From the NCBI GenBank assembly GCA_965228485.1, contig OZ245819.1, forward strand, positions 210,001 to 242,000: 32,000 nucleotides of DNA, written 5' to 3'. The notes below the pieces were generated by a model. It was not told the DNA's origin, did no database searches, and was given only the letters and a program-made list of their open reading frames with translations. A program made the translations under genes and the position numbers. Within the stretch, counting starts at the first letter, position 1, and each line of letters begins with the position of its first letter. Origin of the DNA: Candidatus Saccharimonadota bacterium. GTDB lineage: Bacteria > Patescibacteriota > Gracilibacteria > UBA4473. Positions 2-31,381 of the stretch are shown piece by piece.

Positions 2-2293
2 TTGCAGACCGAAATTCCAGAATTAATTGAAGAAAAACGAATGGAGCTACCATTTGTTAAGAATCTTCCTGCCACAGCAGGCGGAGGGGAGAGTTCTTTC
101 CAACCAGATATTCCAAGTCTTCCAATGAGCCAGCTACCATTCTTACCACCACCTCCAAAGATGGATAATTTGACTTGTGGGATGCTTAATAATTTGAAAG
201 TTCCACTCTCATTCTTGAATTTGGAATGTATGATTCGTTTGGGAGTAGCCCCTGTGTCTGAGTGGTATGTAAAACCTCATGTAGAGAGAAGAACTAATCG
301 TTCAGCACTTTCAAAAAATAAAGACTTTACTTCGTCTTCGATTAAACCAGGACCATTTACAGGAAATCCGAGTACTATGAGTGTCTTTGGGAAAAGTGGA
401 AGAAACTCTATTTTTGAAGGAAATCATGATCAACTAAAGGAAGCGGCAAAAGGCCAAAGTTCTTTTATTAAATCCAATTCTCAATCGCCTTCCACTAAAG
501 GCTTGAATAGTATCCCCGCTTCAGGAGGTGAAACGATTAAAACTTCTTCTCTTGATCCATTAAAAGAATGGAAAAATTGGCTCGTTACAGGAGAAACAGA
601 ATCTGAAAAAGCACTAGAGCCAATCGCTTTTTTGAAAGCTCTGAAGCATTTATCAGAAACGATGCCAACCTATGTTGATGCGCAAGAAAAATTAAAAGTT
701 CAATTAGCGACAACGGAAATTCCTGAGTCTATTACCAGGGCAAGAGAGATTAAAGAAATAGATACCGCCTTTAATAATTATTTGGCTAAACTTGAATCTT
801 ACAGACAAGAACGATTACAAGAAACTAAAAGACTTAAGTATGTATACGAAAGTCAGCCAGAAACTTTCTTTGAAGATCGATTTGTTCAAAATACGATTTC
901 TAAAGACAAACGTTTCTTAGCGGCTAATACTGATAGCGCGCTTGACTTTGAAATTCCAGTGAGAGAATTTACAACCAGTGTGGCACAATTTGAACCACCA
1001 GTAGAAGATACGGCAGATTTTGAATTTGTGGCGGATAACTTTGAAGAAAATATTAATCAAGATGAATCAAGCAATAGCTGTGCCAATATGGTAAAGCCCG
1101 GGATTTACTACGGGGATGGTAATGGCGATAGCTTGGATAGAATTAATAAGCTGCCATACCGAACTATTAGTGCTTATGCGGTCTTTGACCTAGATGATGA
1201 TGGAGTGAATGAAATTCTCTATGGATTGGGAGCAGAGCTCTTTGTAAAAAGAAAATCAGGACCGAGTGGAGAAACTCTTAAGTTTAATTTGGAAGTTATC
1301 AACAGCATTGATCTAGATGATTTTGAAAGGCCTGTAGATACATTGGAAAACTATGAATTCTATGGGGCACTGAATAGTGAATTTGGAAAAGATGAATCTC
1401 TAGCCAATTATACGGAATGGGAATTCTCTGAACGACCAGACCAGATTTTTGAGCTTCATAAAACCTCCGCTAATAAGTATGCGAACTGGAAATCTTCTTT
1501 AGGGACTATTTCTAGAGGCATTCCAGAGCAGGGAACTTTGAGAGATACGACCGCTCAAATTGTAGAAGTAAAAGGTTCTCCACAGATTAAATCTCCATTA
1601 AAAATTCCTCTACTCAAGTTTGAACCAGAAGCTTGTGCCAATGAGAATATTGTAAAACCTTTCATTCAGAGTGGGATGGTTATGGCCATAGATGAACCCG
1701 CAACGGTTCAGGTTTACTTCCCACCAAATAGAGCCCGAGAAGCGAGAGTAGAAGTACATGATATTGCCCCAGGGGAAGAGCTTTATTTAGAAGATGCTGA
1801 TGTTTGCCTCTTTGAGGGAACGGCTTGGTTTGCTCAGTATGATTATTTGGATGAATATGATTTTTGGGTAACAAACCAACAAGTTTTTGCGGGTAACAAT
1901 GAGGAACTTGAGCCAAAAGTTATTAAATTTGCTGACGGATCAGAAGTACTTATTGAAGGGCGGGATGAATGGCTTGAAAAAGTAGAAGACGGGACATTCC
2001 AAAACTGGACACCTCTGATTAATACAACATTGCTATCGGCCTCTCAATTACGATTAAAACCAGATGAAGAGGTCACTATCGTTTTCAATAATGGAGAACG
2101 AAGAGTGCTGACAGGTCCAATGGATTATTATTTCCAGATCAATGATACCGATGAGGTATCAAGTGAGTTTAGATTCCCAGTACCATCGTTTGATCAAATT
2201 TATAGTCAAGTGGCTGGATTTGAAGTCAATCAAAAATCTTACTACAAACCACAATTTTTCCCTATAATTACTCAGAGTGAAGATGAAGAATAA
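2..2293 (+). CDS. Large orphan protein, probably extracellular. Its 5' end is cut by the window edge (first in-frame ATG at 41). The C-terminus carries the shared DEYDFW domain.
   Basis: A 2.3-kb uninterrupted frame is open to the window edge, and the TAA stop at 2291-2293 is overlapped by the next start. It contains LPATAGGGES (65-94), a Pro-rich stretch and one FG-GAP/VCBS-like motif FDLDDDGVNEILYG (about 1187-1228). The C-terminal domain (1547-2140) is paralogous to 4420-5004. I recognise no family for the whole protein. Confidence 0.8.
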   Translation: MQTEIPELIEEKRMELPFVKNLPATAGGGESSFQPDIPSLPMSQLPFLPPPPKMDNLTCGMLNNLKVPLSFLNLECMIRLGVAPVSEWYVKPHVERRTNRSALSKNKDFTSSSIKPGPFTGNPSTMSVFGKSGRNSIFEGNHDQLKEAAKGQSSFIKSNSQSPSTKGLNSIPASGGETIKTSSLDPLKEWKNWLVTGETESEKALEPIAFLKALKHLSETMPTYVDAQEKLKVQLATTEIPESITRAREIKEIDTAFNNYLAKLESYRQERLQETKRLKYVYESQPETFFEDRFVQNTISKDKRFLAANTDSALDFEIPVREFTTSVAQFEPPVEDTADFEFVADNFEENINQDESSNSCANMVKPGIYYGDGNGDSLDRINKLPYRTISAYAVFDLDDDGVNEILYGLGAELFVKRKSGPSGETLKFNLEVINSIDLDDFERPVDTLENYEFYGALNSEFGKDESLANYTEWEFSERPDQIFELHKTSANKYANWKSSLGTISRGIPEQGTLRDTTAQIVEVKGSPQIKSPLKIPLLKFEPEACANENIVKPFIQSGMVMAIDEPATVQVYFPPNRAREARVEVHDIAPGEELYLEDADVCLFEGTAWFAQYDYLDEYDFWVTNQQVFAGNNEELEPKVIKFADGSEVLIEGRDEWLEKVEDGTFQNWTPLINTTLLSASQLRLKPDEEVTIVFNNGERRVLTGPMDYYFQINDTDEVSSEFRFPVPSFDQIYSQVAGFEVNQKSYYKPQFFPIITQSEDEE
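1547..2140 (+). other. Copy 1 of the shared roughly 195-aa domain (TAxxV..GxPxIKxPxKIPL ... EGxAxFAxxDxxDEYDFW ... LSAxQLxLK ... YxxQI)
   Basis: By-eye alignment of the two ORF translations gives colinear blocks and two conserved Cys. Confidence 0.75.
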
Positions 2294-3374
2294 TTTATTA
2301 GGACTGGCTCTGATGTTTGGGATTTCATCCTGCTTTACGCTGGTAACGGTGGTGATTGCTCAAGGAGAATTTCAGAGCGATTTTGCTACTCCTATTGAAG
2401 AAAACAATCAAGAATACTACACGGCTTACGTTGAAAACGCTTTTCATACTAAACCTCGAGACCTAATGCAGAGTCCAGAGGAAGCTAAAAAAGAGCACGA
2501 TGAAAAAATGCAGGGAATGTTTAAGAGTGCTATGATTGATCGTGATTGTGAAAACAAAAAGAAGTATAATAAAGAGCTTAAAAAAGTAGCCCCTCAAGAA
2601 AAGTTTAAATGTATGCCAAAAGACCCTTCTATTAAACAAGAAAATACTTTTAAGGCTATTGCTCAAGCTCAACAAGAAGTAAGAGTGGCTTTGTGGGAAG
2701 AAGATAAAAAATACTTAGCAAAGCTCAATGAACCGAGTCTTTGGGATCGCCTAACGACGACTTATGCGGCTCGTCAGTCTAGTACGCCTGGAGGGAATGG
2801 GTATCAATCTCGGTGTGAAGCTCGAGGAGACCAAAAAACCACCGCTTCAGAAGAAAATTCTCCTTGTAGAGTCGCTGAAGCGGCTACAAATGAAACGGCT
2901 GGTTACGATGCGTATCTAAAGGCTCGCCTGAATCATGGGCCTGCTTTAGAACAAGATCTCTGTGAAAATTTTGCATACTTTGGAGTTGAAGATCCCAAAT
3001 GTGATGGTGGGGGATCGGCTTCTATTAATAGTTTATTCCCTGTTGTCTATGCTGCTAAAACAATGGGGGGCGTAAGTGAGATTGAACTACATAGTTTTCG
3101 ACAAATCCGTCGAGATAAATATGCTGAAGAAATGGCTGGATCTGCCAAAGCTAACAAAGAAGCGAGTCGGCAATTCACAGAAAGAGATCTAGCTCAGAAT
3201 GATCATTTGAGGACAGAGGTAACGATTCAGGGGGAGAAGGGTGAGAATGAAAGGTTAAAGCAAGCAGGAGGAAACTCTAGTGAAGAAGAGTGTCAGGGGA
3301 CGTGTAAATTTCCTAAAAAATTCCATGATGCTTCTAGTGGTCAGGGAGGAACTCAACAACATATGGATGCATAA
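2277..3374 (+). CDS. Orphan secreted protein or lipoprotein, Cys-rich and highly charged
   Basis: The ATG at 2277 (or 2283) overlaps the upstream ORF by 17 nt. The N-terminus MKMKNNLLGLALMFGISSC has a basic n-region and a hydrophobic core. ISSC fits a lipobox, and VIA|QGE is an alternative SPase I site. It has nine Cys, is E/K-rich, and shows no recognisable catalytic motif. Confidence 0.75.
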   Translation: MKMKNNLLGLALMFGISSCFTLVTVVIAQGEFQSDFATPIEENNQEYYTAYVENAFHTKPRDLMQSPEEAKKEHDEKMQGMFKSAMIDRDCENKKKYNKELKKVAPQEKFKCMPKDPSIKQENTFKAIAQAQQEVRVALWEEDKKYLAKLNEPSLWDRLTTTYAARQSSTPGGNGYQSRCEARGDQKTTASEENSPCRVAEAATNETAGYDAYLKARLNHGPALEQDLCENFAYFGVEDPKCDGGGSASINSLFPVVYAAKTMGGVSEIELHSFRQIRRDKYAEEMAGSAKANKEASRQFTERDLAQNDHLRTEVTIQGEKGENERLKQAGGNSSEEECQGTCKFPKKFHDASSGQGGTQQHMDA

Positions 3375-4063
3375 TGCTTGATATTATTTTTTCTTTATCG
3401 ATTTTTGCACTAATCAATCTAGGTCAACACCTGGAAGAAGGTGTGGCAACTGGAGGTGGTGGAGAAAGTGGATATAGTGCCGTAAGAAAGGGGGAGACAA
3501 AAGAAGGACAAGCCGAAAGAGTAAAACAAGGACAAAACTTTCCAGAAACTGGGACCGCTAAAGATGCTTATAAAAGACCTTTTGATGCGACCGATACTCA
3601 ACCCGAAAGAACAACTACTGCTGCGGTAGAATCGGCTCTTTCTGAAGATGGAGATTTTTCGGTTCCGCTTAATGAATATGATCCAGATCCTTTATTTACC
3701 CTGGATACCTTAGGGGCTCAGGCAGATCTGGATGTAAATCAAAAAACTTTTGGTCCTATAGCCGAAAATGATTCTGATATGAAGAAGCAAGATGATAGTG
3801 CGGTTTACAATGATCGAAAAGGGGATAACAACAAAACGGCTATGGTTTCAGAGGACGATTATAAAGCTCAATTTACGGAGCCTTACGGAAAGCCTCGTAA
3901 ACCTGAGAATGGAGATACTAATTATCAAATAGATGAGACTTTAGATAAACAACAGGCTGGGGCAAAGGCTCGAGAACAAAAACCTAAATACACCGATCCA
4001 TCATCAAATAAGTTGGATTCGAGCGTTGATAAAGCTTTGGTTGGTGATCCATTACAACAATGA
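3374..4063 (+). CDS. Orphan acidic low-complexity protein with a hydrophobic N-terminus followed by VATGGGGES
   Basis: The start ATG shares its A with the upstream TAA (TAATG), and the TGA stop lies inside the next start (ATGA). The N-terminal segment IIFSLSIFALINLG is hydrophobic. The rest is D/E/K/T/Q-rich, has no Cys and is probably disordered. Confidence 0.65.
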   Translation: MLDIIFSLSIFALINLGQHLEEGVATGGGGESGYSAVRKGETKEGQAERVKQGQNFPETGTAKDAYKRPFDATDTQPERTTTAAVESALSEDGDFSVPLNEYDPDPLFTLDTLGAQADLDVNQKTFGPIAENDSDMKKQDDSAVYNDRKGDNNKTAMVSEDDYKAQFTEPYGKPRKPENGDTNYQIDETLDKQQAGAKAREQKPKYTDPSSNKLDSSVDKALVGDPLQQ

Positions 4064-5703
4064 GAAAGTATTTTATGTTTCTAGTTCTATTTCTGGGGGA
4101 AACTTTTCTGGTTTCGGCTCAGTCTGGGATTGTAAAGCCCGTGAAATTAAGCCAGCCAACAGAAGCTCTTAGTAAAGTAAATCAACAAAAGATTCTACAA
4201 AAAAATAGCTGTCAATCATTGGCTACTTTAGGGGGGAGTATTCGTAAGGAAAATTATCTAAAATCGGTTAATAAATCCTTATTAAAACTTAGTAATAATG
4301 AGGATTATGCTGAGTGGTTTGTGCTTGGACCGCCTTTTATTCGTCAGCCAGAAGATCATCGAGTTTCACTGGGGCTAACGGTTCGGGCAGATGGCCAAGA
4401 TATGGAAGTTCGAGAGACAACTGCCAAAGTGGTTTCTATTACCGGGACTCCTAAAATTAAAGCCCCGATAAAAATTCCATTAAGAAAAACTTCTTTAGAG
4501 GACTGTGATCAGCTGGATGTGGTAGATTCCTTTGTGAAAAAAGGGAGGGTTTTTGCTGAAACTGAGTCAGTAGCTCTCTCTGTTTATGACCTAAAGGATA
4601 GAGATGAACCGCCTGTTCAGATTAAACTGAATCCAGGGCAAGAAATCTTTTTAGAAAATAAGAAGGTTTGTAATTATGAGGGACAGGCTTATTTTGCTCG
4701 TTTTGATTTCTTTGATGAATATGATTTTTGGCAGAATAACCGAAAGGCTTTCTCACGACAGAAGACTAATAACGGTACTGTCATTAAATTTTTTGATGGT
4801 TCTTCTTTGCTAGTAGATGATCGGGAAGGTTGGTTTTCCGAATTAGGATTGGCTCGTTTGACGTCTTTTAATCCACTTAAAGAGGATGAGGTAATTTTAT
4901 CTGCAGCGCAGCTTGATCTAAAAAAAGGAGATAAGGTTAAACTAGAATTTTCTAATGGTTTGACTCGGACCTTTAGTATTCCTGGTAAATATTGTTATCA
5001 GATTGAGGCCCTTCCTTTGGAGGTCCTACTCAGCGAAGAGGAGGAAGAAGAAAAGAAAGAGGAGGAAGAAAAATCGGATGAAGATAAACCATTTTCTTCT
5101 GGGGTTAATAACGTAAATGCTTGTCGTCCTTCTCAGTATCCACCTAATGATAAATCAAACTCAGCCAGAATGGACCGTATTCGTGGGAATATGTGTAAAA
5201 CCTTTTCTAAGGATGTTTCAACCCGTCAGAACGGAGTGCATATTAATCAGCCGCATCAGGTTCCAAACAATCTGACCAATAGAGGGCAAAATAGTGATGG
5301 GAGTTGTGATAGTCCTCCAGCACCAAGAAGTAAGCAGCCAAGAAATAAACCAGAAGGACGAAAATCTGTGAGTGATCGTTATGACGAAATTTTAAATAAG
5401 AATGTTTATGGTCACGATCAAGATATTGCAGGTTTAGCTGATGCTGGAGGAGCTTCGGCTTATGGAGATACGAGTTATGTTTCGGCTTTACGTTCGGTGA
5501 TTAACTTCAAAGCAGAAAAATTTAATAGAGATACGAAAAAAATGGAAAGAACTCGGGAAACCGAAGCGGTTCAAACTCGGCTTGAAAGAGAATCTCAGTC
5601 TCAAGAAGAAGAATTCAAAGCTAATAAACTTAAAAATTGTCAGATGACTGAATATAGACATCATATGGAAGATTTAGCTGGTAAACCAAAAGTATCCTCG
5701 TAA
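4060..5703 (+). CDS. Orphan secreted protein: signal peptide, shared DEYDFW domain, poly-E/K linker and a basic C-terminal region
   Basis: MRKYFMFLVLFLGETFLVSA|QSG is a classical Sec signal. Residues encoded by 4420-5004 are paralogous to 1547-2140. An acidic run LSEEEEEEKKEEEEKSDED is encoded at about 5030-5090. The start overlaps the upstream stop as ATGA. Confidence 0.85.
   Translation: MRKYFMFLVLFLGETFLVSAQSGIVKPVKLSQPTEALSKVNQQKILQKNSCQSLATLGGSIRKENYLKSVNKSLLKLSNNEDYAEWFVLGPPFIRQPEDHRVSLGLTVRADGQDMEVRETTAKVVSITGTPKIKAPIKIPLRKTSLEDCDQLDVVDSFVKKGRVFAETESVALSVYDLKDRDEPPVQIKLNPGQEIFLENKKVCNYEGQAYFARFDFFDEYDFWQNNRKAFSRQKTNNGTVIKFFDGSSLLVDDREGWFSELGLARLTSFNPLKEDEVILSAAQLDLKKGDKVKLEFSNGLTRTFSIPGKYCYQIEALPLEVLLSEEEEEEKKEEEEKSDEDKPFSSGVNNVNACRPSQYPPNDKSNSARMDRIRGNMCKTFSKDVSTRQNGVHINQPHQVPNNLTNRGQNSDGSCDSPPAPRSKQPRNKPEGRKSVSDRYDEILNKNVYGHDQDIAGLADAGGASAYGDTSYVSALRSVINFKAEKFNRDTKKMERTRETEAVQTRLERESQSQEEEFKANKLKNCQMTEYRHHMEDLAGKPKVSS
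4420..5004 (+). other. Copy 2 of the shared roughly 195-aa domain
   Basis: It has the same blocks as 1547-2140: TAKVVSITGTPKIKAPIKIPLRK, PGQEIFLE..VCNYEGQAYFARFDFFDEYDFW, VIKFFDGSSLLVDDREGW, LSAAQLDLKKGD and YCYQI. Confidence 0.75.
5037..5070 (+). repeat. 13-nt purine direct repeat AGAGGAGGAAGAA, two copies (5037-5049 and 5058-5070), offset 21 nt and in frame
   Basis: Read directly from the sequence inside the poly-Glu/Lys linker of CDS 4060-5703. Confidence 0.8.
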
Positions 5704-7652
5704 TGAAACATCTTATTATTTCAATGTTCCTAACAATTGCTTTGAGTCCATTGACTCAAGCACAGAGCTGTACTCCACCGAGTACGATACAGTCTATTTG
5801 TGGAGAATGTAAAGGTGGAGGTGGCGGTTCAGGTGAAAATACTGGTGACTTCAAGATAAAAGATAAATCTTTGTTGGCTAAATATGGGAGAGTTGATGCT
5901 ATGCCGAATGTTCCAAAATCTTTGTCAAAAACCCTAGATCAGTGTTGGGAAGATATTCGAAAACTAGATCAAGAATGTAATAGTGAAGGGGACGAATCAG
6001 TGTGTCAAAAGAGTCGAAAATGTATGGATAACTACCATAAAATTGTGAATTCTTTTACTCGGGCACACTCTGATGATTTACCAGAATCAGAAGATCGTCA
6101 CGATCAAGAGCTTATGGATAAGCTTCAGAAAGAAACAGACCCTCAAAATTTAGCTACCTGTGCTGATGAGGAGTCAGAAAAATCACAGGGACTTCAGCCA
6201 GCAGAAAAAACGATTGATAAGTTAGAGAAGCCCAATGAAGATGAGTTTGAAGGTTCTGAACAACCCGCTCCAGCCAGTGGAGAATTTGGTCCAGATGTGC
6301 CAGGGCTAAAAGGGGGAAAAGGTTTTGTTCAAGATCAGGGAAAACGACATAGAGATTTAGAGACACCAGAAAGTGATGGTCCCTATCAAAAAGCTAAAGA
6401 AGAAAAAGAAAAGGGGAAAGTCTCGTTTTTAAACTTCTTTATTTCAGGGGCGGTAGCCAATGATAGTATGGAAGATTCGAGAACAGGATTCTTTGGGAGA
6501 TTAAAGGATTCTATTGGAAGTTTTTTTAAGGGGGGTGGTAAAGCTCGAGAGCAAGGGGCAAAATCATTTGATCAAGGAGAATATATTGCTCAAAATCGGG
6601 TACAAACTATTTTAGCGAGAAGTGGTGATCAGGCTTTGAAAAGGAATTACCAGCAATTTACCGAAGAAAAAAATCATCAGACTCGACTTAATAATGACGT
6701 TGCAGGAGAAGGTGAGGCGGCCATTCAAGAACGTTTTTCCAAAAATGTAGATGAACAAAAAAAGACGAATGATGAGTTAGATAAAGCGATTAAGGCTATT
6801 GCCAAAATCTGTCAAAATCAACAAGCAGAAATCAAATGCTGGAAGACCGGTAACACTCCACCACCTCTGCCTTTTCCATTTGGAGGTGGGCCTGCACCAG
6901 AAGAAACACCTCAGGAAGAGTTAGAAGATTGGAGTGAATTAATAAAACGTTCGGCGAGTTATTACTGTCCATCTGTTGATCAGCCTTTAATCCTTACAGC
7001 TGAGGAGGGGATTTGGCATTCTGGTCTTATTCTCACTCCAAAAGGAATTGTGCTTACTCATTTAGATCCGATGAAAGATTATGACTTTCATCCAAAGGGG
7101 TGTTTGGTTCGTATGCCTGATCCATTGGATCCAGAAAATTTTGAAGTTTATGTTTCTGAGCCTCGTTTTGTAGAGGGAATTTCTTCGAGAGATAACTTAA
7201 TATTCTTGGTGCCAGAAGCTCCACATGTTGAAAATAATGAGTTCCTTGGTTCACCAGAGAAAGATCGAAAATTTCCGACGATCTTAGATTATATCTCTCA
7301 ATCAACCGATACTTGTGCTCAATCTGATCTAAAAATGGGAACGCCTTTAAAACTGATTGGTTATAATACTCCAGAACGTTTTGAAAAAAATCGTCCAGTT
7401 GCAATTCTAGAGGCCCTTAGTACGACTTTCCCAAGTGGAGAACAGAAAACAATGACCGCTGTAGTTGAAGCCAAAGATGGTATGACTGGAGCGATTTTAG
7501 CTCACAGAGATAATCAGTGTTTTCAGGGAATTGCACGGATTAAAAAAGTAGATGAAGAGGTAACCATAAGAGATATTATCCCTCTAGAAACGATTCAAAT
7601 ATTTGTCGAAGAAGCTGTAGAGGTGCTTAATGCCGATAAACAGGAAAGTTAA
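5703..7652 (+). CDS. Orphan secreted protein: signal peptide, Cys-rich N-terminal region with a Gly5 run, charged middle and a C-terminal chymotrypsin-fold-like domain
   Basis: MKHLIISMFLTIALSPLTQA|QSC is a signal peptide, and the TAATG junction links it to the upstream ORF. The C-terminal roughly 230 aa show trypsin-like block order (see the feature at 6955-7640). Confidence 0.85.
   Translation: MKHLIISMFLTIALSPLTQAQSCTPPSTIQSICGECKGGGGGSGENTGDFKIKDKSLLAKYGRVDAMPNVPKSLSKTLDQCWEDIRKLDQECNSEGDESVCQKSRKCMDNYHKIVNSFTRAHSDDLPESEDRHDQELMDKLQKETDPQNLATCADEESEKSQGLQPAEKTIDKLEKPNEDEFEGSEQPAPASGEFGPDVPGLKGGKGFVQDQGKRHRDLETPESDGPYQKAKEEKEKGKVSFLNFFISGAVANDSMEDSRTGFFGRLKDSIGSFFKGGGKAREQGAKSFDQGEYIAQNRVQTILARSGDQALKRNYQQFTEEKNHQTRLNNDVAGEGEAAIQERFSKNVDEQKKTNDELDKAIKAIAKICQNQQAEIKCWKTGNTPPPLPFPFGGGPAPEETPQEELEDWSELIKRSASYYCPSVDQPLILTAEEGIWHSGLILTPKGIVLTHLDPMKDYDFHPKGCLVRMPDPLDPENFEVYVSEPRFVEGISSRDNLIFLVPEAPHVENNEFLGSPEKDRKFPTILDYISQSTDTCAQSDLKMGTPLKLIGYNTPERFEKNRPVAILEALSTTFPSGEQKTMTAVVEAKDGMTGAILAHRDNQCFQGIARIKKVDEEVTIRDIIPLETIQIFVEEAVEVLNADKQES
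6955..7640 (+). other. Putative PA-clan (trypsin/HtrA-like) peptidase fold with Thr in place of the Ser nucleophile
   Basis: WHSGLILTPKGIVLTHLD resembles GSGfvis.dGyilTnaHV (His codon 7059-7061). RDNLIFLV resembles DlAllkv (Asp codon 7191-7193). MGTPLKLIGYNTP resembles vGd.v.aiGnP. KDGMTGAILAHRDNQCFQGIA resembles GnSGGPlvn..G.vvGI (Thr codon 7485-7487). His-to-Asp spacing is 44 residues and Asp-to-Thr spacing is 98. In chymotrypsin numbering, H57-D102-S195 gives 45 and 93. Confidence 0.45.
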
Positions 7653-7655
7653 TTT

Positions 7656-8336
7656 TTAGCCAAATACAGCCCAACTTTTTCTGATCCACTGCCAAAGTTT
7701 AAAAGCGGTCATTACTGATGAATCTACTCGTTCCCCTTCCCGTTTTAGAGTCGTGACATTTCCAACACCAACCTCAGTGATGGTGTTTGTGTCTGCCATG
7801 ATTCGTGCTTGCTCTTCCCGTTCATGGGCACGATTGTCCGCTCGAGTTTCTTCGGTGTATCCTGCAATTTTTCTCTCTTTGTTAGCGGTTTGAGAATGAG
7901 TTAGATGTTGTTGTTGAAGTGCTTGAGTTCGTTCATTTTTTTGGCGAGTATCCTCTAGGACTTCTTGGATATCTTGCCTATTGGTTGGATACTGAGAGCA
8001 GTCTTTATTAATATTTGCCTCAACATCAGCACGACACTGACTACAATTTTTTAGATTTTTTGTGGTTTCCTCCGTTACGGTTTTATGATTGGCCTTGTTG
8101 TCATCGTCAATATCTTTAGCTCCTTTTACTTCACCTTCACCTTCTTTGTGACATTTATTCGCTTTTTCTAATTTCTTTTTAACGGCTTCATAAAGCGCCT
8201 TTTTTGTAGGGTCTGTACATTCTTGCTCAGTAAAAGGTTTAAAGGTAATTGGGCATTTTGCTTCGGAGGCAAAAGTTGTCTGAGAAGATGCAATAATCAC
8301 ACTTGTAACGATAAAACTGCTTACACGCCAATTCAT
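7656..8336 (-). CDS. Orphan secreted protein with six Cys, a charged body and a Trp-rich amphipathic C-terminal tail
   Basis: MNWRVSSFIVTSVIIASSQTTFA|SEAKC is a signal peptide. The C-terminus is FKLWQWIRKSWAVFG. It lies 76 nt downstream of the secA stop on the same strand, and its end is 3 nt from the stop of CDS 5703-7652. Confidence 0.75.
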   Translation of the reverse strand: MNWRVSSFIVTSVIIASSQTTFASEAKCPITFKPFTEQECTDPTKKALYEAVKKKLEKANKCHKEGEGEVKGAKDIDDDNKANHKTVTEETTKNLKNCSQCRADVEANINKDCSQYPTNRQDIQEVLEDTRQKNERTQALQQQHLTHSQTANKERKIAGYTEETRADNRAHEREEQARIMADTNTITEVGVGNVTTLKREGERVDSSVMTAFKLWQWIRKSWAVFG

Positions 8337-13096: not shown

Positions 13097-14164
13097 ATGG
13101 ATTTTAATCAGGTTGTCGACTTTGCCACACAAAATGGAGTGTCAGATATTCATCTAATTGCTGGTTCGCCTATTTTTATGCGTCGAGATGGACAGATGCA
13201 AGCGATGGGAAATCCCGTTGAAGAATCTTTTATCAGTAACATTGTTGAGTCAGTAGTAACGCCAATTCAAAAGAAGCATCTTGAGGATAAACGTCAGGTT
13301 GATTTTCTTTATCAGACACCGAAAGGCATACGTTTGAGAGGGAATGCTTTTTTTACTCATAATGGACTTTCTGTTTGTTTTCGAGTGATTTTGAGTGAGC
13401 CACCAGATTTTAATGTTCTTGGTTTTCCTGATTTTGTGGGAGAAGAACTTATGAGAGCAAAACAAGGTCTTGTGCTTGTTGTTGGTCCCACTGGTCAGGG
13501 TAAATCAACGACTATTGCTTCTCTTATTAAAGCTCGAACAACGGCTTATACTGAGCATGTTTTGATGATCGAAGACCCAGTAGAATATGTAGTTCCAAAT
13601 TCCAAGAGTGTTATTCAACAGCGTGAGATTGGGCGAGATGTTCTAAGTTTTGAAGCGGGTATTATGGGAGCCCTAAGAGAAGACCCTGATCTACTTATGA
13701 TTGGAGAAATCCGTGATAAAGAAACTATGGCAGCAACATTAACATTGGCCGAAACAGGCCATCTTGTATTAGGAACACTTCATACTAATAGTGCTGTACA
13801 GACTATTACACGAATTCTTGATAGTTTTACGGCCGAGCAACGTCCACAAGTGAGAAGTCAATTAGCGAGTCATTTATCTATGGTTATTTCTCAACGACTG
13901 GTTCCAAGAGCTGATGGAAATGGACGAGCTTTGGCTTTTGAGATTTTGACCATGAATTATGCAGTCGCAAATTATATTCGTCAGGATAAAATCTTCCAAA
14001 TTCCAAATGTTATGCAAACTGATAACTCAGGAAGAATGATTCAGTTTGAACAATCTCTAGTTGGTCTCGTAATGGCTAAAAAGATTAGTAAGGAAGTAGC
14101 CATTGAATATGCCAATGATAAAAACCAGCTAAAAGCTCTATTTGAACTTAATAATATTGCCTAA
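13097..14164 (+). CDS. pilT: Type IV pilus retraction ATPase, PilT family (copy 1)
   Basis: It has Walker A GPTGQGKSTT, the Asp box/Walker B DPDLLMIGEIRD, the His box GHLVLGTLHTNSA and a PilT-type C-terminal motif AVANYIRQDKIFQI (compare AIRNLIRE). Confidence 0.9.
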   Translation: MDFNQVVDFATQNGVSDIHLIAGSPIFMRRDGQMQAMGNPVEESFISNIVESVVTPIQKKHLEDKRQVDFLYQTPKGIRLRGNAFFTHNGLSVCFRVILSEPPDFNVLGFPDFVGEELMRAKQGLVLVVGPTGQGKSTTIASLIKARTTAYTEHVLMIEDPVEYVVPNSKSVIQQREIGRDVLSFEAGIMGALREDPDLLMIGEIRDKETMAATLTLAETGHLVLGTLHTNSAVQTITRILDSFTAEQRPQVRSQLASHLSMVISQRLVPRADGNGRALAFEILTMNYAVANYIRQDKIFQIPNVMQTDNSGRMIQFEQSLVGLVMAKKISKEVAIEYANDKNQLKALFELNNIA

Positions 14165-14166
14165 GT

Positions 14167-15249
14167 ATGAATTTTGATCTTGATCAGATTTTAGAATATG
14201 CCATTAGCAAGGGGGCCTCTGATATTCATATTAGTCCAGGTAAACCGCCATGTTTTCGTATTGCGGGAAAGATAGTCCCTGTTGGAGAACCGGTAAACTC
14301 TGGAAATATCCAGACACTAGTTGGACAGGTTTTAGATGGTTTTCAACAGGCCAAAATTGACGAGTTTAGAGATATAGATTTTGTTCACACGACAATTAAG
14401 AAGAACCGTTTTAGAGGGAATGCCTATCATACTAGAGATGGCATTTCTTTTGCGTTTAGACTAATCGCGCAAAATATACCAGCTTTTGACACACTCGGAT
14501 TACCGCAGTTTGTTCTCGATTATGTAATGAAGCTTAATAAAGGGTTGGTACTTGTTGTTGGACCAACTGGACATGGTAAATCAACGACGTTAGCGTCAAT
14601 GATTAAGCGAAGAGCTGACGCTAAGGCTGAACATTTTATCCTCTTAGAAGATCCAATTGAGTTTTTGATTGATTCAGATACGAGCATTGTTCATCAAAGA
14701 AGTCTTGCTCGGGATGTGCATACTTTTGAGAGAGGATTAAAAGCGGCACTGAGAGAAGATCCAGACGTTATGATGGTGGGGGAAATGCGTGATCTTGAAA
14801 CCATTACTGCCGCATTAACAGCTGCAGAAACTGGGCATGTAGTCTTTTCAACTTTACATACTAATAGTGCTGCAGAGACCATTCACAGAATTATTGATGT
14901 TTTCCCTTCTGAGAAACAATTACAAATTCGTTCTCAGCTGGCTTCAAGCTTGGCGTTAGTGATTTCACAACGTCTACTTGAGGGGGCTGATGGACGACGA
15001 GTCCTAGCTTATGAGGTTATGACGAGTAATTATGCTATTAAAAATCATATTCGTCAGAATTCTGTTTTCCAAATTCCAAATGCGATGCAAACCGATAATT
15101 CTGGGCGAATGGTGTTATTTGATCAGTCTTTAGCTTTCTTAGTTAAAAGTGGTAAAGTTGCTTATGAAGTGGCAAAAGATTCGGCTCATTTTCCAGACCA
15201 GTTAGATTATATTTTGGAGACTTCAGGTTTTGATTTTGAATCAAAATAA
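14167..15249 (+). CDS. pilT: Type IV pilus retraction ATPase, PilT family (copy 2, tandem paralog)
   Basis: It starts 2 nt after the stop of copy 1. It has GPTGHGKSTT, DPDVMMVGEMRD, GHVVFSTLHTNSA and AIKNHIRQNSVFQI. Confidence 0.9.
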   Translation: MNFDLDQILEYAISKGASDIHISPGKPPCFRIAGKIVPVGEPVNSGNIQTLVGQVLDGFQQAKIDEFRDIDFVHTTIKKNRFRGNAYHTRDGISFAFRLIAQNIPAFDTLGLPQFVLDYVMKLNKGLVLVVGPTGHGKSTTLASMIKRRADAKAEHFILLEDPIEFLIDSDTSIVHQRSLARDVHTFERGLKAALREDPDVMMVGEMRDLETITAALTAAETGHVVFSTLHTNSAAETIHRIIDVFPSEKQLQIRSQLASSLALVISQRLLEGADGRRVLAYEVMTSNYAIKNHIRQNSVFQIPNAMQTDNSGRMVLFDQSLAFLVKSGKVAYEVAKDSAHFPDQLDYILETSGFDFESK

Positions 15250-21183: not shown

Positions 21184-23313
21184 ATGCAATATGTTGAGGT
21201 ATACTTGAAGAACGTTACAGAAATTTATACTTGGCACACAAGTATACCTGTTCAGATTGGGAGTAGGGTTGAACTCCTTTTCAGAAATAAGCCAAAAATT
21301 GGAGTTGTTACTAAAATTCATACAACTCCTCCTGATTTTGAAACCAAAAGCATTCTGAGCGTTCTAGATCTGGAATTTGTTCCCTCTAAGTATATTGATT
21401 TTGCTTTTGATATTTCAGAAATCTGCTTTTGCAAGCCCACTAAGGTGTTGAGCCTTATGATTCCTTCTAAGTTTTTTTTAAAGAAACAAGCTTTAGAGAT
21501 GAATCGTTATTATACTTTGATAGAAAAAAATCGAGAAGTATTAGAAAAAATAAAGGGAAAAAAACAAAAAGAACTTATTGAGTATTTAGGCAATAATCCT
21601 CAAGTAGAACATAGTGTTATTACTAAACTGTTTACAACGGGAACTATCAAATCTCTCTTAGATCGGGATATTATTAGATGTGAAAAAAATGGATATATAT
21701 TGGCTTCTAATTGTGAAGAATTAGATGAAGCGGTTGCACTGAGCTCTGTGCAATTGAAGGCTGTTAAAAGCATAAAAAATGCAGAGACACCTTCTTTGTT
21801 ATGGGGAGTCACAGGAAGTGGAAAAACTGAGATTTACAAGCAGCTAGCCAAAGAGTTAATAACTCAAGATGGTCAAATGTTATTACTAGTTCCAGAGATT
21901 GGACTGACACCTCAACTCATTAATCACTTTAAAGGGATATTTGGGGACAAGGTTGTTGTTTGGCATTCTAATTTATCTGATGGAGAAAAATTACGTACTT
22001 GGCTGAGTATGTTTACAGGAGAAGCCAAAGTTTTAATTGGAGCTCGTTCGGCCGTTTTAGTGCCGATTCCAAATCTTAAGCTTATAATTTTAGACGAAGA
22101 ACATGAATGGACTTATAAAAACGAATTTGTTCCGAGGTTTTGGACTCATGACATTGTTGAATTGTTGGCACAAAAATTTGAGGCACAACTACTCTTTGGG
22201 ACCGCTACTCCAAGAGTTGAAAGTATTAATAGGGTCGAAAAAGATGACTGGAATTTGGTTCGCTTAGATAAACGTTTTTTTGAAGCTCCAAAATCAAATA
22301 TTCAATTAGTGGATCTTAAAAATGAAATAAAAAGAGGAAATGCTTCACCTTTGTCAGAAGCACTTGTAAAAAATATTAGAGAAATTGTAAACGATAATAG
22401 ACAAGTTGTACTATTTCTCAATAAACGAGGTTTTGCAGGAGCAACTATGTGTCGTTTTTGTGGTCAAACTTTTGAGTGTAAAAACTGTAGTGCTCATATG
22501 AAAGTTCATGGGATCAGTCAACCTAAATTGATCTGTCATATCTGTCACTATATACAACCATTCCCCAAAAAATGCCCTACTTGTAGTTCTGAAAACTTTA
22601 AATTTCAAGGATGGGGGACGCAACAAGTTGAGCAATTGCTAAAACAAAATTTTCCTGACAAAAAAATTCTTAGGGCTGATAGCGATGCTTTGGGGAGTAA
22701 ATATGATTTTGATGATTTAATACAAAAGTTCCACAATCATGAAGCTGACATATTGCTCGGAACACAGATGATTGCTAAAGGTCTTGATTTTGCAAAAGTT
22801 GATTTAGTCGGTCTTATTTTAGCAGATGTAGGGCTTAACCTGCCTGATTTTAGGTCTGAAGAAAGAGTTTTTCAGTTATTAAATCAGGTAGCAGGAAGAA
22901 CGGGGAGAAGGGGACAAGAAAGCCGTGTTATTGTTCAGACTTTTGAACCAGATCATGAAGTTTTTAAATATCTTTTAAAAGATGATATTCCTGGATTTTT
23001 GGAGACCCAAAAGTTATCTAGAAAGTCTATGAATATGCCACCGTTTAGCCACATTGCTAAAATTACCTTTTCTGATCCGAGTAAAACTACAGCCTTTGCT
23101 GAAACAAAAAAGTTTTTTGAAATCCTAAAGCAAATAATTACCGATGAAGAAGAATGCTTTTGGGCTCCAGCATTTTTTCCCAAAGTTCATAATAAATACT
23201 GGTTTTATATTTTTCTTAAGACTCGTGATATAGATAAAACAAAAGCAATACTTCAAAATGTCGATATTCCAAAAGAAGCAAAACTTGATCTGAGTCCTAT
23301 AAGTTTATTGTAA
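21184..23313 (+). CDS. priA: Primosomal replication-restart helicase PriA
   Basis: It has an N-terminal 3'-DNA-binding-type block (IGSRVELLFRNKPKIGVV), Walker A GVTGSGKTE, the DEEH box, and the Cys-rich zinc insertion CRFCGQTFECKNCSAHMKVH...CHICHY...CPTCSS. The motif QVAGRTGRRG is also present. Confidence 0.93.
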   Translation: MQYVEVYLKNVTEIYTWHTSIPVQIGSRVELLFRNKPKIGVVTKIHTTPPDFETKSILSVLDLEFVPSKYIDFAFDISEICFCKPTKVLSLMIPSKFFLKKQALEMNRYYTLIEKNREVLEKIKGKKQKELIEYLGNNPQVEHSVITKLFTTGTIKSLLDRDIIRCEKNGYILASNCEELDEAVALSSVQLKAVKSIKNAETPSLLWGVTGSGKTEIYKQLAKELITQDGQMLLLVPEIGLTPQLINHFKGIFGDKVVVWHSNLSDGEKLRTWLSMFTGEAKVLIGARSAVLVPIPNLKLIILDEEHEWTYKNEFVPRFWTHDIVELLAQKFEAQLLFGTATPRVESINRVEKDDWNLVRLDKRFFEAPKSNIQLVDLKNEIKRGNASPLSEALVKNIREIVNDNRQVVLFLNKRGFAGATMCRFCGQTFECKNCSAHMKVHGISQPKLICHICHYIQPFPKKCPTCSSENFKFQGWGTQQVEQLLKQNFPDKKILRADSDALGSKYDFDDLIQKFHNHEADILLGTQMIAKGLDFAKVDLVGLILADVGLNLPDFRSEERVFQLLNQVAGRTGRRGQESRVIVQTFEPDHEVFKYLLKDDIPGFLETQKLSRKSMNMPPFSHIAKITFSDPSKTTAFAETKKFFEILKQIITDEEECFWAPAFFPKVHNKYWFYIFLKTRDIDKTKAILQNVDIPKEAKLDLSPISLL

Positions 23314-24036
23314 AATCTTTTGAGGATATATGAGTTGACCATCCTTTATCAAGTTGTCTTCGAGAACCTTAAAATAAGTTTTGTCTAAATACATATTTAT
23401 TTTTTTGAGGTCTTCTTTTGTAGTATTTTTCCAGTCATATTTAATAAAATATTTAGAAATATTTCTTAAATTTTTTATTTCATATTCATAATCTTTTGTT
23501 TCTTTCAATAGTTCTAAAGTTTCTAATCTACTTAATTCGTGTTCGTAATACCTACTATCATGTACATGTAGATTTCTTTTATGAACATAACTCTTAAAAA
23601 CTTTTTCGACATCATTTTTTAAGAGAGTTGTTTTTTTCTTCACAGATTTATTTTGATAGGATTTATTAATGATATTTACGTGTTTTTTCAATCTTTCTTT
23701 TAAGAGATATATTTCGTGTAGATAGTTCTCAATGTTATATCTAAGAAATTCTACGTCACCTACTTTTTTAGTAGGAGATTTAACTCCGAGGTAGGCTTGT
23801 ATATTTTCTAGCTTTGTTAAAGAATCTAAAATTTCAATTAGCGATCTGCTTACTTCGCTAACAAATATCCCTTTTAAAGTTAAATATTTTGACTGATCAA
23901 AAAAATCCTTTTGGGGAGATAGCCAAACCTCATTAAGCTTTTTTCGATCTTCTTGTGTTAACCTTGATTCAAACTCTTCTATTTCTTCTATTGCAAGAGA
24001 ATTAATAATGAAGATGTATTTAGATGTGAATTTCAT
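23305..24036 (-). CDS. Orphan 243-aa protein, very AT-rich, with an RNxxxH (HEPN-like) motif
   Basis: The start lies 3 nt after the stop of the upstream 680-aa ORF. The protein is K/E/N/I/Y-rich and looks all-helical. It has a single KRNLHVHD motif (R codon 23575-23577, H codon 23560-23562). There is no signal peptide or TM segment. Confidence 0.7.
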   Translation of the reverse strand: MKFTSKYIFIINSLAIEEIEEFESRLTQEDRKKLNEVWLSPQKDFFDQSKYLTLKGIFVSEVSRSLIEILDSLTKLENIQAYLGVKSPTKKVGDVEFLRYNIENYLHEIYLLKERLKKHVNIINKSYQNKSVKKKTTLLKNDVEKVFKSYVHKRNLHVHDSRYYEHELSRLETLELLKETKDYEYEIKNLRNISKYFIKYDWKNTTKEDLKKINMYLDKTYFKVLEDNLIKDGQLIYPQKILQ

Positions 24037-24039
24037 TCT

Positions 24040-26082
24040 TTAAAGTTTTCCTATTTCACTTTGGATTTTTTCAATAAATTGCTTGGGCGTGTAAGTCTCA
24101 GAGCTTGGACCTTGCCAGTTAATAGAAAAGGCTCCAGCTAAAGCACATAAGGCATAGCCAGATTCTTTGTATCGAGCGAGATATTTTACCCCAGAAGCCG
24201 CCTTTCCTCCCGTGAGGCTGGCACTTCCAACTCCATCGAGCCATCGAAAACGAAAACCTCCTGTTTGAGCTTCTTTTGGAACATTGGGATCAGAACTATT
24301 AAAGGCTGCATACTTTGTATAAAGACCAGTTTCCTTTAGCCATTTTACTCGGTTTCTGACTCCATCTGGACTCCCCCAAAACTTACTGTCATCGACCGGA
24401 ATTCCTAACTTTGTACATTCTTCCATTACCTTTTTCGCGTGCTCAATACACCCATTATAAAAGTTTAATTTTTGTTGTTTTTCAGAAGACATATCTAGGT
24501 TTTTGTCCGCAGCGGTTATCTTTTCTTTTTTATCGTCTTCATCTTCTGTTTCATTTCCTTCAAGGTTTTTTATTGATTTTTCATGAGCATAAGCTTTTAC
24601 GGCATCTAGGGCGTAGAGTTGATTTATCGCATTACGAGCCGCACCAAAATTGGATTGGTTTTTAAAGTAGTTAATCTCGTTTACAACTCGGGCAATTTCA
24701 GCGTCTAAAGCTTTTGGGTCTTCGTAGTCGATTAATAGACTTGTATCATCGGATATTTTGGCTAGTTGTGTTTGATATTTAGTTTTCTCTTTTTTGTCGG
24801 TAGTGCTTTTTATTCTTAGCTCTAACCTTTTTACTTCAGTAATTTGAGTCAGGATACTTGTTTTTAGACTAGTGAGTCTTAATGCTTGTAGAGTATTGAG
24901 CCCAAATTTTTTTTCGAGCATTTCCAATTGATTTGCTGCCCCTCGAATATTTTTGGCAATAAGAAGTTTTCGAGCATGAGTAGCTATGTTTAGAGCTTCA
25001 GTTTGTCTCTGATCTTTGCCAAATTGTGCTTCTAAAAGGATATTTAAGACTTCTGCTGGTCGTTTTGAATTGGCATTCCTGAGTTTTTGTGACCATTCAT
25101 TAACTTCTTTGGGGGTAAAGAAATTTTGGAGTGTTTCTTTTAAATCTTTTTCAGCTGCAGTTTTTAAAGTTTCTGGGAATTTTTTAATCTGATTCAATGT
25201 GAATTTTGTGAGAAAGTCTTCTTCAGTTTGAAAGTTAAAGCCCCGAGTAAAATTCGGGAAAAACATTGGTTGCATTTTTGGAAGTAGACGCCAAAATTTA
25301 GGATCAAATACCTGGCTATAATGCTCATTAAATTCTTTAAGATTTTGAGGTGTCTGTTTATGGATAAGTTCTTCAAAATTTCTGGACCAATCCTTTAGAC
25401 TGATTTTTTGAGAAAGCCATTCTTCAAGTCGAATTGATAATATTTGAGACATTGTATCTCTGATAGACGGCCCGCTTTCGGATTTCAGTCGAAAGTATTT
25501 TTCTTTTCCTATTCTCTTTTCCAGTTCTGCCTGCATATCTAGAACCCGTGCGAGATGGCGAAAAGTTGTTTCAATAGATCGGTGAAAATTTTCCATTAAA
25601 TCTGGATTTAATAAATCTCCACTGGTTTCTTTTTCAAATCGTTTCATAAAACGATCCCAAATTTTTTGCTCTAATCCTGCAGGGAGATTTCTAATTCGTT
25701 GAACACTTGATTTTACCAATTCTTGATTCCTTTTTAATTTCTTCAGAGTTGTGAGAGCTGCATTCAAACGTTCTCTTTTGATTTCTCGACTTTCACTGCC
25801 ATTTAGAAGTTTATTAAGCCTATTTAAGATTTCTCCTTTTTTAGTCTGTGGAGCTAGCTCGATAATTTCAACTCTAAGTTTGGCGGCATCTAAATAAAAA
25901 GATAGCTTTTTTCTTTTTTCTTCTATATCCAAATCCAGTCGCCTAGTTTCTAGTGAAAACCATTCACGATCTTTTGGAGTTAAGTAGTGAAAATTAGCAT
26001 GACCTTTCCACCAGGATTCTAACTCACTAATCTGAGTGGAACCTTGAAAGCTTTCTATATTATAAGCCGATGACTCTGCCAT
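24040..26082 (-). CDS. Orphan 680-aa cytoplasmic protein, mostly helical/coiled-coil, with a distinct roughly 150-aa C-terminal globular region
   Basis: This is a 2-kb uninterrupted frame with no signal peptide and no Walker A or other nucleotide-binding motif that I can see. The C-terminal region (CIEHAKKVMEEC...GGFRFRWLDGVGSASLTGGKAASG...INWQGPS) differs in composition from the helical body. Confidence 0.8.
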   Translation of the reverse strand: MAESSAYNIESFQGSTQISELESWWKGHANFHYLTPKDREWFSLETRRLDLDIEEKRKKLSFYLDAAKLRVEIIELAPQTKKGEILNRLNKLLNGSESREIKRERLNAALTTLKKLKRNQELVKSSVQRIRNLPAGLEQKIWDRFMKRFEKETSGDLLNPDLMENFHRSIETTFRHLARVLDMQAELEKRIGKEKYFRLKSESGPSIRDTMSQILSIRLEEWLSQKISLKDWSRNFEELIHKQTPQNLKEFNEHYSQVFDPKFWRLLPKMQPMFFPNFTRGFNFQTEEDFLTKFTLNQIKKFPETLKTAAEKDLKETLQNFFTPKEVNEWSQKLRNANSKRPAEVLNILLEAQFGKDQRQTEALNIATHARKLLIAKNIRGAANQLEMLEKKFGLNTLQALRLTSLKTSILTQITEVKRLELRIKSTTDKKEKTKYQTQLAKISDDTSLLIDYEDPKALDAEIARVVNEINYFKNQSNFGAARNAINQLYALDAVKAYAHEKSIKNLEGNETEDEDDKKEKITAADKNLDMSSEKQQKLNFYNGCIEHAKKVMEECTKLGIPVDDSKFWGSPDGVRNRVKWLKETGLYTKYAAFNSSDPNVPKEAQTGGFRFRWLDGVGSASLTGGKAASGVKYLARYKESGYALCALAGAFSINWQGPSSETYTPKQFIEKIQSEIGKL

Positions 26083-26160: not shown

Positions 26161-27807
<1,647 letters not shown>

Positions 27808-31304: not shown

Positions 31305-31381
31305 GAGCGCGTAGCTCAGTTGGCTAGAGCATCTGGTTTACACCCAGGAGGTCGCGGGTTCGAATCCCTCCGCGCTCACCA
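31305..31381 (+). tRNA. tRNA-Val, anticodon UAC, 3' CCA encoded
   Basis: I folded it by hand. The acceptor stem is GAGCGCG/CGCGCTC, the D-arm is GCTC-AGTTGGCTA-GAGC, and the anticodon stem is TCTGG/CCAGG with loop TT-TAC-AC. The T-arm is GCGGG-TTCGAAT-CCCTC, with one C:U mismatch in the stem. The discriminator is A, followed by CCA. Confidence 0.9.

Follow-up and report, generated by a model that had tools for sequence, protein, structure and literature searches.

The 32,000-nucleotide stretch of contig OZ245819.1 analysed here (the window) opens with six open reading frames (ORFs) that appear to form the 3′ part of a conserved cassette of exported proteins arranged around one giant protein. 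Five of them lie on the forward strand, namely ORF1 (2..2293), whose 5′ end is located beyond the window start in the window's ORF list, ORF2 (T2; 2277..3374; 363-365 amino acids (aa), by the start codon chosen), ORF3 (T3; 3374..4063; 229 aa), ORF4 (T4; 4060..5703; 547 aa) and ORF5 (T5; 5703..7652; 649 aa). The sixth, ORF6 (T6; 7656..8336, reverse strand; 226 aa), is convergent to ORF5, with only 3 nucleotides (nt) between the two stops (7652 and 7656). A first-pass annotation of this DNA had described the six ORFs, four overlapping or abutting junctions and hydrophobic N-terminal leaders, and all of these are borne out by the ORF list, by reading of the DNA and by hydropathy. It had also counted five separate same-strand proteins, but ORF1 is the last part of a giant gene (~11.2 kb) that constitutes the core of the locus: its translation is an exact C-terminal substring of protein P0006 (residues 2967-3729, 763 aa, of 3,729). 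The giant was thus seen as P0006, with the window DNA covering its 3′ end (2..2293) alone.

Read on the DNA, ORF1 terminates with TAA at 2291-2293, and ORF2 could begin either at GTG 2277, which gives the 17-nt overlap (2277-2293) originally proposed, or at ATG 2283, which gives an overlap of 11 nt. The latter is probably the true start, because the GTG-start form of ORF2 is absent from the protein collection in which ORF3 to ORF6 are found as exact entries, each a singleton 90% cluster from a single 1,295,315-bp contig. ORF2 and ORF3 are joined through TAATG at 3372-3376, ORF3 and ORF4 through ATGA at 4060-4063, and ORF4 and ORF5 again through TAATG, a junction that had been correctly recognized but placed at 5700-5705 and that reads 5701-5705.

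The leaders were assessed by inspection and Kyte-Doolittle hydropathy, and by these means the characteristics of type I signal peptides fit the giant, ORF4, ORF5 and ORF6. The predicted leader of P0006 ends ...PQVFA↓QS, and those of ORF4 (MRK...VSA↓QSG), ORF5 (MKH...TQA↓QSC) and ORF6 (MNWR...TFA↓SE) have the look of classical Sec leaders. The leader of ORF2 is comprised of MKNN, 22 hydrophobic residues and then VIA↓QGE, and may represent a signal anchor rather than a cleaved leader because its h-region is 22 residues long. The N-terminus of ORF3 is hydrophobic and uncharged, without basic residues in the n-region. No further transmembrane (TM)-like segments were detected by hydropathy in ORF2 to ORF6 beyond the N-terminal one. 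The even sets of cysteines remarked upon earlier are present, with 8, 0, 8, 14 and 6 in the mature products of ORF2 to ORF6, respectively, and 26 in the giant. The products are also rich in Glu, Lys, Asp and Gln as claimed (27-34%), although the enrichment is only modest relative to the 21-30% seen in ten housekeeping proteins of the window.

The giant itself is strongly acidic (net charge about -242) and is not serine-rich. From N- to C-terminus it is made up of a signal peptide, a conserved region of 600 aa, immunoglobulin (Ig)-like modules, a region resembling FG-GAP, segments that are Pro-rich or coiled, and a beta domain. Pfam searches of the giants returned only sub-gathering matches to FG-GAP_3, Big_1 and GH2_C5 (Ig-like), along with Invasin_D3 in a relative, all of which are located mid-protein and outside the window. 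No anchor was found in the giant among TM segments, LPXTG, lipobox and SLH: hydropathy gave no TM-like segment in P0006 other than the leader, and an LPXTG regular expression applied to the six products and to the whole of P0006 matched only internally (LPATA, giant aa 2988) and nowhere at a C-terminus.

The giant belongs to a family defined by its C-terminal beta-rich domain, located in the window at 1346..2140 on the forward strand (ORF1 aa 449-713). A profile of this domain, searched exhaustively against 1.8 billion representatives, retrieved P0006 and 24 other proteins, nearly all of 3,100-4,700 aa and bearing the domain near the C-terminus. The description of the products as orphans must accordingly be abandoned, as the giant family has at least 25 representatives (the P0006-P0029 series) and the set of genes that follows it recurs in relatives. 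An alignment of 23 giants is collinear and conserved over the whole length, with landmarks in the N-terminal 600 aa (DDPRGFSF, EIWHGVIR and LIGD.PLPVVEKNG), after the Pro-rich stretch (PVPEWY.KP...TNR) and in the C-terminal domain (YFEW.SDRPD and two invariant Cys). Residues C440, R444 and H571 are also conserved within the first 620 aa of the giant. The window fragment carries both PVSEWYVKP and the C-terminal domain and so belongs to the family. Its Pro-rich stretch and motif PVSEWYVKPHVERRTNR are encoded at 137..310 on the forward strand; the family consensus of the motif is PVPEWY.KP.VEQ.TNR, and the P, E, N, R and D columns of this region, which is among the best conserved 8-mers, are nearly invariant in the 23-giant alignment.

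When one genome of each GTDB species was scanned with a degenerate pattern of the family, 15 loci were retrieved, all in metagenome-assembled genomes (MAGs) titled Candidatus Peribacteria, Gracilibacteria, Altimarinota or "bacterium". ORF1 shares 30% identity over 775 aa with the giant of locus L001 (E=5e-112), and the closest relative is encoded on a 1.33-Mb Altimarinota chromosome (41% identity). In the complete chromosome of that relative (locus L005; OZ246423.1, 1-17255 reversed), the giant gene crosses the record start, and the match covers query residues 1-2335 alone, up to the record end; the region that would hold any tail genes is thus outside view.

The C-terminal domain is conserved in at least 20 giants, with invariant Y, G, C, C, G and Y columns. 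An AlphaFold2 (AF2) model of ORF1 aa 330-763, built on a 20-sequence alignment, has a mean predicted local distance difference test (pLDDT) score of 68 and displays a confident all-beta core (blocks of 85-96) with a second, moderately confident beta region. The model describes a beta-sandwich or barrel module for which no relative was identified. A second copy is found within the same locus: ORF1 and ORF4 share a 265-residue domain with 34% identity (BLASTP, E=3e-43), which in ORF4 occupies nt 4249-5004 (aa 64-315), after the signal peptide and ahead of the T4 tail. The orthologues of ORF4 are less than half as long, and the domain copy is absent from the T4 proteins of loci L001 and L002. The copy is thus specific to the window, and with only 34% identity between the two domains the duplication is an old one.

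This arrangement, a giant exported protein followed by several small genes, one of which repeats the C-terminal region of the giant, recalls the orphan CT cassettes of CdiA and Rhs systems. It raises the alternative of a polymorphic-toxin or contact-dependent effector locus, in which the C-terminus of the giant would be an effector delivered into prey or a host, the small genes would encode immunity or chaperone functions and ORF4 would be an orphan module. This interpretation, which we regard as improbable, is disfavoured because the C-terminal domain is conserved across the giants rather than hypervariable, and because the proteins encoded downstream are exported members of conserved families; with 229-649 aa they are also large, unlike the products of cognate immunity genes. 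Searches for the polymorphic-toxin class (CdiA, Rhs, MafB) gave no toxin or immunity matches in Pfam, NCBIfam or PADLOC, and Pfam gave no VENN, Rhs/YD or PT-domain match in the locus products or giants. The ORF4 copy has its own signal peptide, is missing from L001 and L002, and is too diverged to be anything but an old duplication as opposed to a recombination substrate. In favour of an effector, relatives in the clade are predatory (PMC8080830).

The genes that follow the giant, its tail, can be described individually. T2 is a conserved family of 260-365 aa and is the first tail gene in every tailed locus. It features a conserved Cys pair (C178/C195) within C..G...CRV.E...N and a C-terminal K(F/W)P.KFH(D/N)A motif, and hmmsearch places it directly 3′ of the giant in loci L012 (9e-16), L007 (6e-9), L020 (1e-17) and L022 (3e-18), as well as in L001 and L002. 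T3 continues from its hydrophobic N-terminus into a Gly-rich, charged and Cys-free chain that is probably disordered. Its positional counterparts in L001 (266 aa) and L002 (253 aa) possess a similar N-terminus followed by a Gly-rich, charged segment, with sequence similarity that does not reach significance (E 0.07-0.8). T4 comprises a signal peptide, the copy of the giant's domain, a low-complexity linker of Glu and Lys, and the T4 tail (nt 5050-5700). Compared singly with the T4 proteins of L001 and L002 (241-246 aa), this tail gave matches at E about 2.6e-4.

T5 matches its counterparts over its full length, with 32% identity to its L002 counterpart P0031 (E=1.5e-95) and 30% to that of L001 (E=5.5e-63), and it has 8 invariant Cys. 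It is composed of a signal peptide, a Cys-containing helical N-terminal and central part that ends in CWKTGNTPPPLPFPFGGG (nt 6837-6890), and a C-terminal domain (nt 6936-7649). The N-terminal and central part alone constitutes the last tail gene in L007, L012, L020 and L022, and the C-terminal 240 aa are confined to the three loci with four-gene tails. T6 bears a leader and 6 Cys and is located 76 nt downstream of secA on the same strand as secA. Homologues of T6 are found in L002 (E=8e-10) and L001 (E=1e-5), likewise convergent and in the corresponding place; the positional counterpart in L007, a 225-aa protein with a leader, is not detectably similar. Conserved Cys or Cys pairs are thus found in T2, T5 and T6, and for every ORF but ORF3 other genomes encode a sequence homologue in the corresponding place. 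Searches of a word index with ORF4, ORF5 and an ORF5 alignment retrieved only the query itself and one homologue, probably with low-complexity tails swamping the candidates. No match came from scanning metagenomes with the ORF5 alignment, nor from a degenerate DNA pattern for NTPP(P/Q)LPFPFGGG.

The tail cassette recurs in seven independent loci, namely the window, L001, L002, L007, L012, L020/L021 and L022, and the conservation of gene set and order in related genomes that had been put forward as a check on the system was found by comparison of synteny. L001 encodes a giant of 3,752 aa (P0007), a same-strand tail of 321, 266, 241 and 660 aa and a convergent gene of 563 aa. L002, the source of P0031, encodes a giant cut at the locus edge (at least 2,251 aa), a tail of 305, 253, 246 and 651 aa and a convergent gene of 286 aa. 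The convergent ORF6 homologue is present in these two loci. L007 and L012 have three tail genes, the first and last of which are matched by the T2 and T5 N-terminal/central profiles. The genes are therefore real and the set is not a product of chance, as homologues are found at the same positions in other genomes.

Which giants carry a tail is related to the form of their C-terminus. Tailed giants end right after the C-terminal domain (short form), whereas tail-less giants extend for a further 320-375 aa (long form), such that the tail accompanies only short-form giants and co-varies with the C-terminal form. A tail was forecast from the short C-terminus of P0013 and P0028, and both proved to carry one (292/362/373 aa and 283/479/400 aa, with overlapping junctions), consisting of T2 (E about 1e-17), a middle protein Tx, and the T5 N-terminal part, T5N (E 1e-14 to 6e-21). 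The tails of four genes (T2-T3-T4-T5) and of three (T2-Tx-T5N) are versions of one cassette, because in hhalign the T4 profile pairs with the C-terminal half of Tx at a probability of 83% (E=1e-5). A relationship of Tx to T3 was rejected for want of detectable similarity. The long-form giants without a tail (L003, L008, L009, L011, L013, L017 and L018) are preceded on the same strand by a homologous protein of 1,250-2,040 aa at a distance of 28-84 nt and by a protein of 710-885 aa ~5.5 kb upstream, and these loci represent a second, different conserved architecture of the giant locus. The possibility that the tail genes derive from the long-form C-terminal extension was also rejected (hhalign probability <1%).

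Other genes recur near the giants as well. Three-gene-tail loci have, after the cassette, a gene for an SBP_bac_1 solute-binding lipoprotein (~480 aa) and a conserved gene of ~360 aa (L012 17458-20036, L020 20523-23053, L022 13519-16086), and the same pair is found a few kb downstream of some long-form giants (L011 and L013). A 7TM_transglut and ATP-grasp/MATCAP gene pair is located a few kb upstream of the giant in L001 (378-4250) and L020 (1-2685), two tailed loci from different assemblies.

The tight junctions of the locus invite another explanation, that of unrelated secreted proteins crowded side by side in a compact genome, neither forming a complex nor sharing a function. Stop/start overlaps are indeed frequent among other genes of the window, promoter-like sites are at background level, and Shine-Dalgarno (SD)-like motifs (GGAG, GAGG or AGGA within 20 nt upstream) precede just 3 of 23 window genes; this scarcity applies to gene starts throughout the window (e.g., 11110, 13097, 15321 and 26161-27798). 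Translation initiation in this genome thus seems, from the gene starts, to be largely SD-independent, which would render re-initiation at stop/start junctions potentially more important. Tight coupling is then partly a genome-wide habit, yet a run of four junctions with spacings of 0 nt or below remains noteworthy. Chance packing is nonetheless very improbable, for the same families are found in the same order beside the same type of giant in seven loci despite identities of 25-30%, the tail co-varies with the C-terminal form of the giant, and a domain is common to the giant and ORF4.

The position of the cassette beside secA had been pointed out in the first-pass annotation. Locus L007 shares the wider order of giant, tail, convergent small leader-bearing protein, secA, UPF0176 rhodanese and two PilT genes, but the adjacency to secA is shared with L007 alone. 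It is synteny inherited with one relative and not a functional link, because the other tailed loci (L001, L002, L012, L020 and L022) have other neighbours. The comparison with L007 also bears on rates of change: SecA is 72% identical between the two, and the rhodanese and PilT are each 68% identical, whereas the giants share ~25-29% and the tail proteins are barely detectable. By this measure, the cassette evolves several-fold faster than its surroundings.

These observations bear on whether the cassette encodes a constitutive envelope coat or surface layer (S-layer)-like fibre serving envelope integrity rather than host recognition specifically. Exported, acidic products, a giant with weak Ig-like matches, a location among housekeeping genes in synteny with secA in two genomes, and the spread of family giants across Peribacteria, Gracilibacteria and Altimarinota MAGs would all suit a coat. 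Its extreme divergence relative to its neighbours, however, is more typical of interaction or antigenic surfaces, its architecture varies between lineages, and Pfam searches of the locus products and giants revealed no SLH, CWB2 or other wall-binding domain. A coat is thus a credible but unlikely account, and even so it would mean that ~1.3% of a 1.3-Mb genome is devoted to one structure (~16.6 kb from the start of the 11.2-kb giant gene to the end of ORF5).

A further proposal concerns the C-terminal domain of T5, which might be a Ser/Thr protease of the chymotrypsin fold (HtrA/S1C-like), or an inactive descendant of one, that matures or releases a giant adhesin in the manner of LapG on LapA. 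By eye, the domain displays motifs in the order expected of HtrA-type enzymes (G..LTH, D/N-L-x-F-L, L.MG..L.L.GY..P, G-x-S/T-G-G/A, G-I, and IIP followed by a terminal helix). The spacing of His453, Asn498 and Thr595 is 45/97 compared to 45/93 in chymotrypsin, and the putative triad columns read H/D/S in L001 and H/N/T in the window and L002, with the His invariant in all three sequences. The best local hhalign matches also fall on the GxSGG and VGD..aiG.P motifs. Formal tests of this proposal either failed or were uninformative: there is no Pfam or PDB profile match at E<=10, hhalign probabilities are <1%, and the global profile score does not exceed that of column-shuffled controls. The AF2 model of the domain has a pLDDT of 39.8 and its Foldseek matches are unrelated, and the absence of the domain from three-gene tails makes it dispensable for the cassette. 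A protease in this position is therefore doubtful and is retained only as a lead.

Taken together, the six ORFs make up the 3′ end of a cassette that is conserved but diverges rapidly and that encodes a giant and other proteins with export-type N-termini, and we consider it rather probable that this cassette specifies a cell-surface complex for holding a host. The giant and T2 to T5 would be made in fixed proportion from one transcript, exported by Sec and stabilized by disulfides outside the cell, where they would assemble into a surface fibril or adhesin complex. Cells of small genome, presumably episymbiotic, could then use the complex to recognize and hold a host or partner cell. T2 or T3, each with a long or uncleaved hydrophobic N-terminus, could plausibly tether the giant, because the giant is without an anchor of its own, and would probably do so via the C-terminal beta domain. 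The domain would in that case act as a docking module, and its copy in ORF4 is as expected of an interaction module. A role in contact with hosts at the surface is suggested by the weak Ig and FG-GAP content, the lack of an anchor in the giant and the literature on large surface proteins in the clade, and fast evolution combined with conserved cysteines and export would likewise fit a surface host-attachment complex.

Several points weigh against this interpretation. Co-transcription, surface localization, complex formation and host binding are deduced from genes and sequences, the signal peptides are predicted by eye and hydropathy, and an episymbiotic lifestyle is presumed and not readable from the window. 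Scans for promoter and terminator consensus sequences remained at background level; one promoter-like site is located at 8371-8343 on the reverse strand, inside the gap between secA and ORF6. No ligand-binding domain of an adhesin was identified, and Foldseek comparison of the modelled C-terminal domain with PDB and BFVD gave no match at E<1e-3, only short, weak resemblances to cupin or jelly-roll folds. The link between T3 and its counterparts consists solely of position, composition and the character of the N-terminus. Most giants of the family are also without tail genes, from which it follows that the tail is not essential to the basic function of the giant.

A more elaborate version of the host-holding complex may be offered tentatively, as one that we think has a minor chance of being correct in full. 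The cassette would specify a host-contact organelle that is new to science and specific to the Gracilibacteria/Peribacteria lineage, in which a 3,700-residue fibre is tethered and capped by dedicated exported subunits, namely T2, T3/T4 or Tx, and T5. In one sublineage, T5 would have gained a protease-like domain (H/D/S changing to H/N/T) and T4 a copy of the docking domain of the fibre, with the long-form giants and their two large upstream partners being an alternative build.

The remainder of the window fits a small-genome patescibacterium using genetic code 11 and includes secA, dnaE, priA, hrcA, groES/EL, trpS, two PilT-type ATPases, a sortase and one tRNA (at 31305), the last being the only Rfam match in the window. 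TGA is a stop codon here, as three genes end in it, and the alternative code in which UGA specifies Gly, known in some Gracilibacteria, was rejected on this ground and because the housekeeping genes are intact under table 11. The PilT-like ATPases lie 5 kb from the locus, beyond secA, and are encoded by tandem PilT/T2SSE-type genes (355 and 360 aa; 13097-15249, forward strand) separated by 2 nt; in the Gracilibacteria MAG with locus L007, the pair occurs at 23779-25931 in the same order after secA and the UPF0176 rhodanese (57-68% identity). The sortase gene (29376-30182, forward strand) makes the envelope appear monoderm-like. The giant and ORF2 to ORF6 are without a C-terminal LPXTG, so the sortase substrates lie elsewhere. 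Between priA and groEL, a 680-aa ORF without a Pfam match (24040-26082, reverse strand) adjoins a 243-aa ORF (23305-24036, reverse strand) that has weak matches to DUF3310 and a phage nucleotide-kinase PHROG, and 23305-26082 may be a small foreign insertion (GC 0.28 at 23001-24000). The hrcA (reverse) and priA (forward) ORFs as called overlap by 138 nt at their 5′ ends (21184-21321), and the true priA start is probably a later ATG.

To our knowledge, the means by which ultra-small, host-dependent Patescibacteria recognize and hold their hosts are largely unknown outside the Saccharibacteria, and giant surface proteins are usually listed by size only. The general idea of such proteins would not surprise a specialist of the candidate phyla radiation, and the function proposed here is deduced; what is added is a defined family of giants with landmarks, two locus architectures and small partners that are inherited together. 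The cassette is a concrete candidate for a determinant of attachment or host specificity in Gracilibacteria and Peribacteria, and could be useful as a marker locus for strain and host-range variation in metagenomes.

No described family accommodates these proteins, in agreement with the first-pass annotation. Pfam, NCBIfam, PHROGs and PADLOC searches of all six products, PDB sequence searches with ORF1, ORF5, the shared domain and the giant profile, and Foldseek identified no member of a known family. A prophage or defence island was rejected given the lack of PHROG and PADLOC matches and the conserved chromosomal synteny. The absence of C-terminal LPXTG from the six products and the giant separates the locus from sortase-anchored proteins. 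It also differs from accessory Sec (SecA2/SecY2) systems, having a single secA and no SecY2, Asp or glycosyltransferase genes among the window neighbours, and from type IV pilus tip adhesins and minor pilins, with no prepilin motif in the giant (regular expression) or in the leaders of ORF2 to ORF6 (by eye).

Closer likenesses exist to systems that are known by name. The P1 and MgPa operons of Mycoplasma encode a large adhesin co-translated with accessory P40/P90 or P110, and they share with the present locus a minimal-genome, host-dependent bacterium, a large adhesin with partners in a coupled operon, fast evolution and duplicated adhesin segments. In Mycoplasma, however, the adhesins are anchored by TM helices and the duplicated segments are silent recombination donors, whereas the ORF4 copy is an expressed, fused domain; the PDB sequence searches revealed no similarity to Mycoplasma adhesins. 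The LapA-LapG-LapD and SiiE systems also feature a giant acidic adhesin of Ig repeats, the display of which needs neighbouring accessory genes, and the analogy would extend to the LapG protease only if the T5 C-terminal domain is a protease. The giant differs from these type I secretion system (T1SS) adhesins of the repeats-in-toxin (RTX) class in bearing an N-terminal Sec leader and no GGxGxD (GG.G.D) repeats, and the window holds no T1SS genes for an ATP-binding cassette (ABC) transporter or membrane fusion protein (MFP). The weak mid-giant matches to Big_1, Invasin_D3, GH2_C5 and FG-GAP_3 recall the Ig arrays of invasin and intimin and the integrin-like FG-GAP/VCBS propellers; these matches are below Pfam gathering thresholds and outside the window, and the giant possesses neither a LysM or beta-barrel anchor nor a C-type lectin tip.

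The nearest parallels come from the same broad clade of small-genome Patescibacteria, in the proteins of Ca. Peribacter riflensis, Vampirococcus lugosii and Strigamonas methylophilicida (PMC4736985, PMC8080830, PMC13059738). Large extracellular or surface proteins of 1,219-3,861 aa are the main strain-variable loci of Ca. Peribacter (PMC4736985), and those of Vampirococcus and Strigamonas are treated as candidates for host attachment (PMC8080830, PMC13059738). Like the giant described here, these large proteins of Peribacteria and Absconditabacteria (1,200-4,200 aa) have a signal peptide and integrin/FG-GAP or Ig-type domains, vary between strains and are proposed to function in attachment. 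The claim of an undescribed system is therefore less novel than was assumed, since large extracellular proteins of the clade have already been noted. In their available text, the three reports list such proteins by size and Pfam content and do not define this family, its C-terminal domain, its short and long forms or the tail. Giant surface proteins of Peribacteria and Absconditabacteria are thus known as a category; among the papers searched, none defines the present family or describes its two architectures and its accessory tail.

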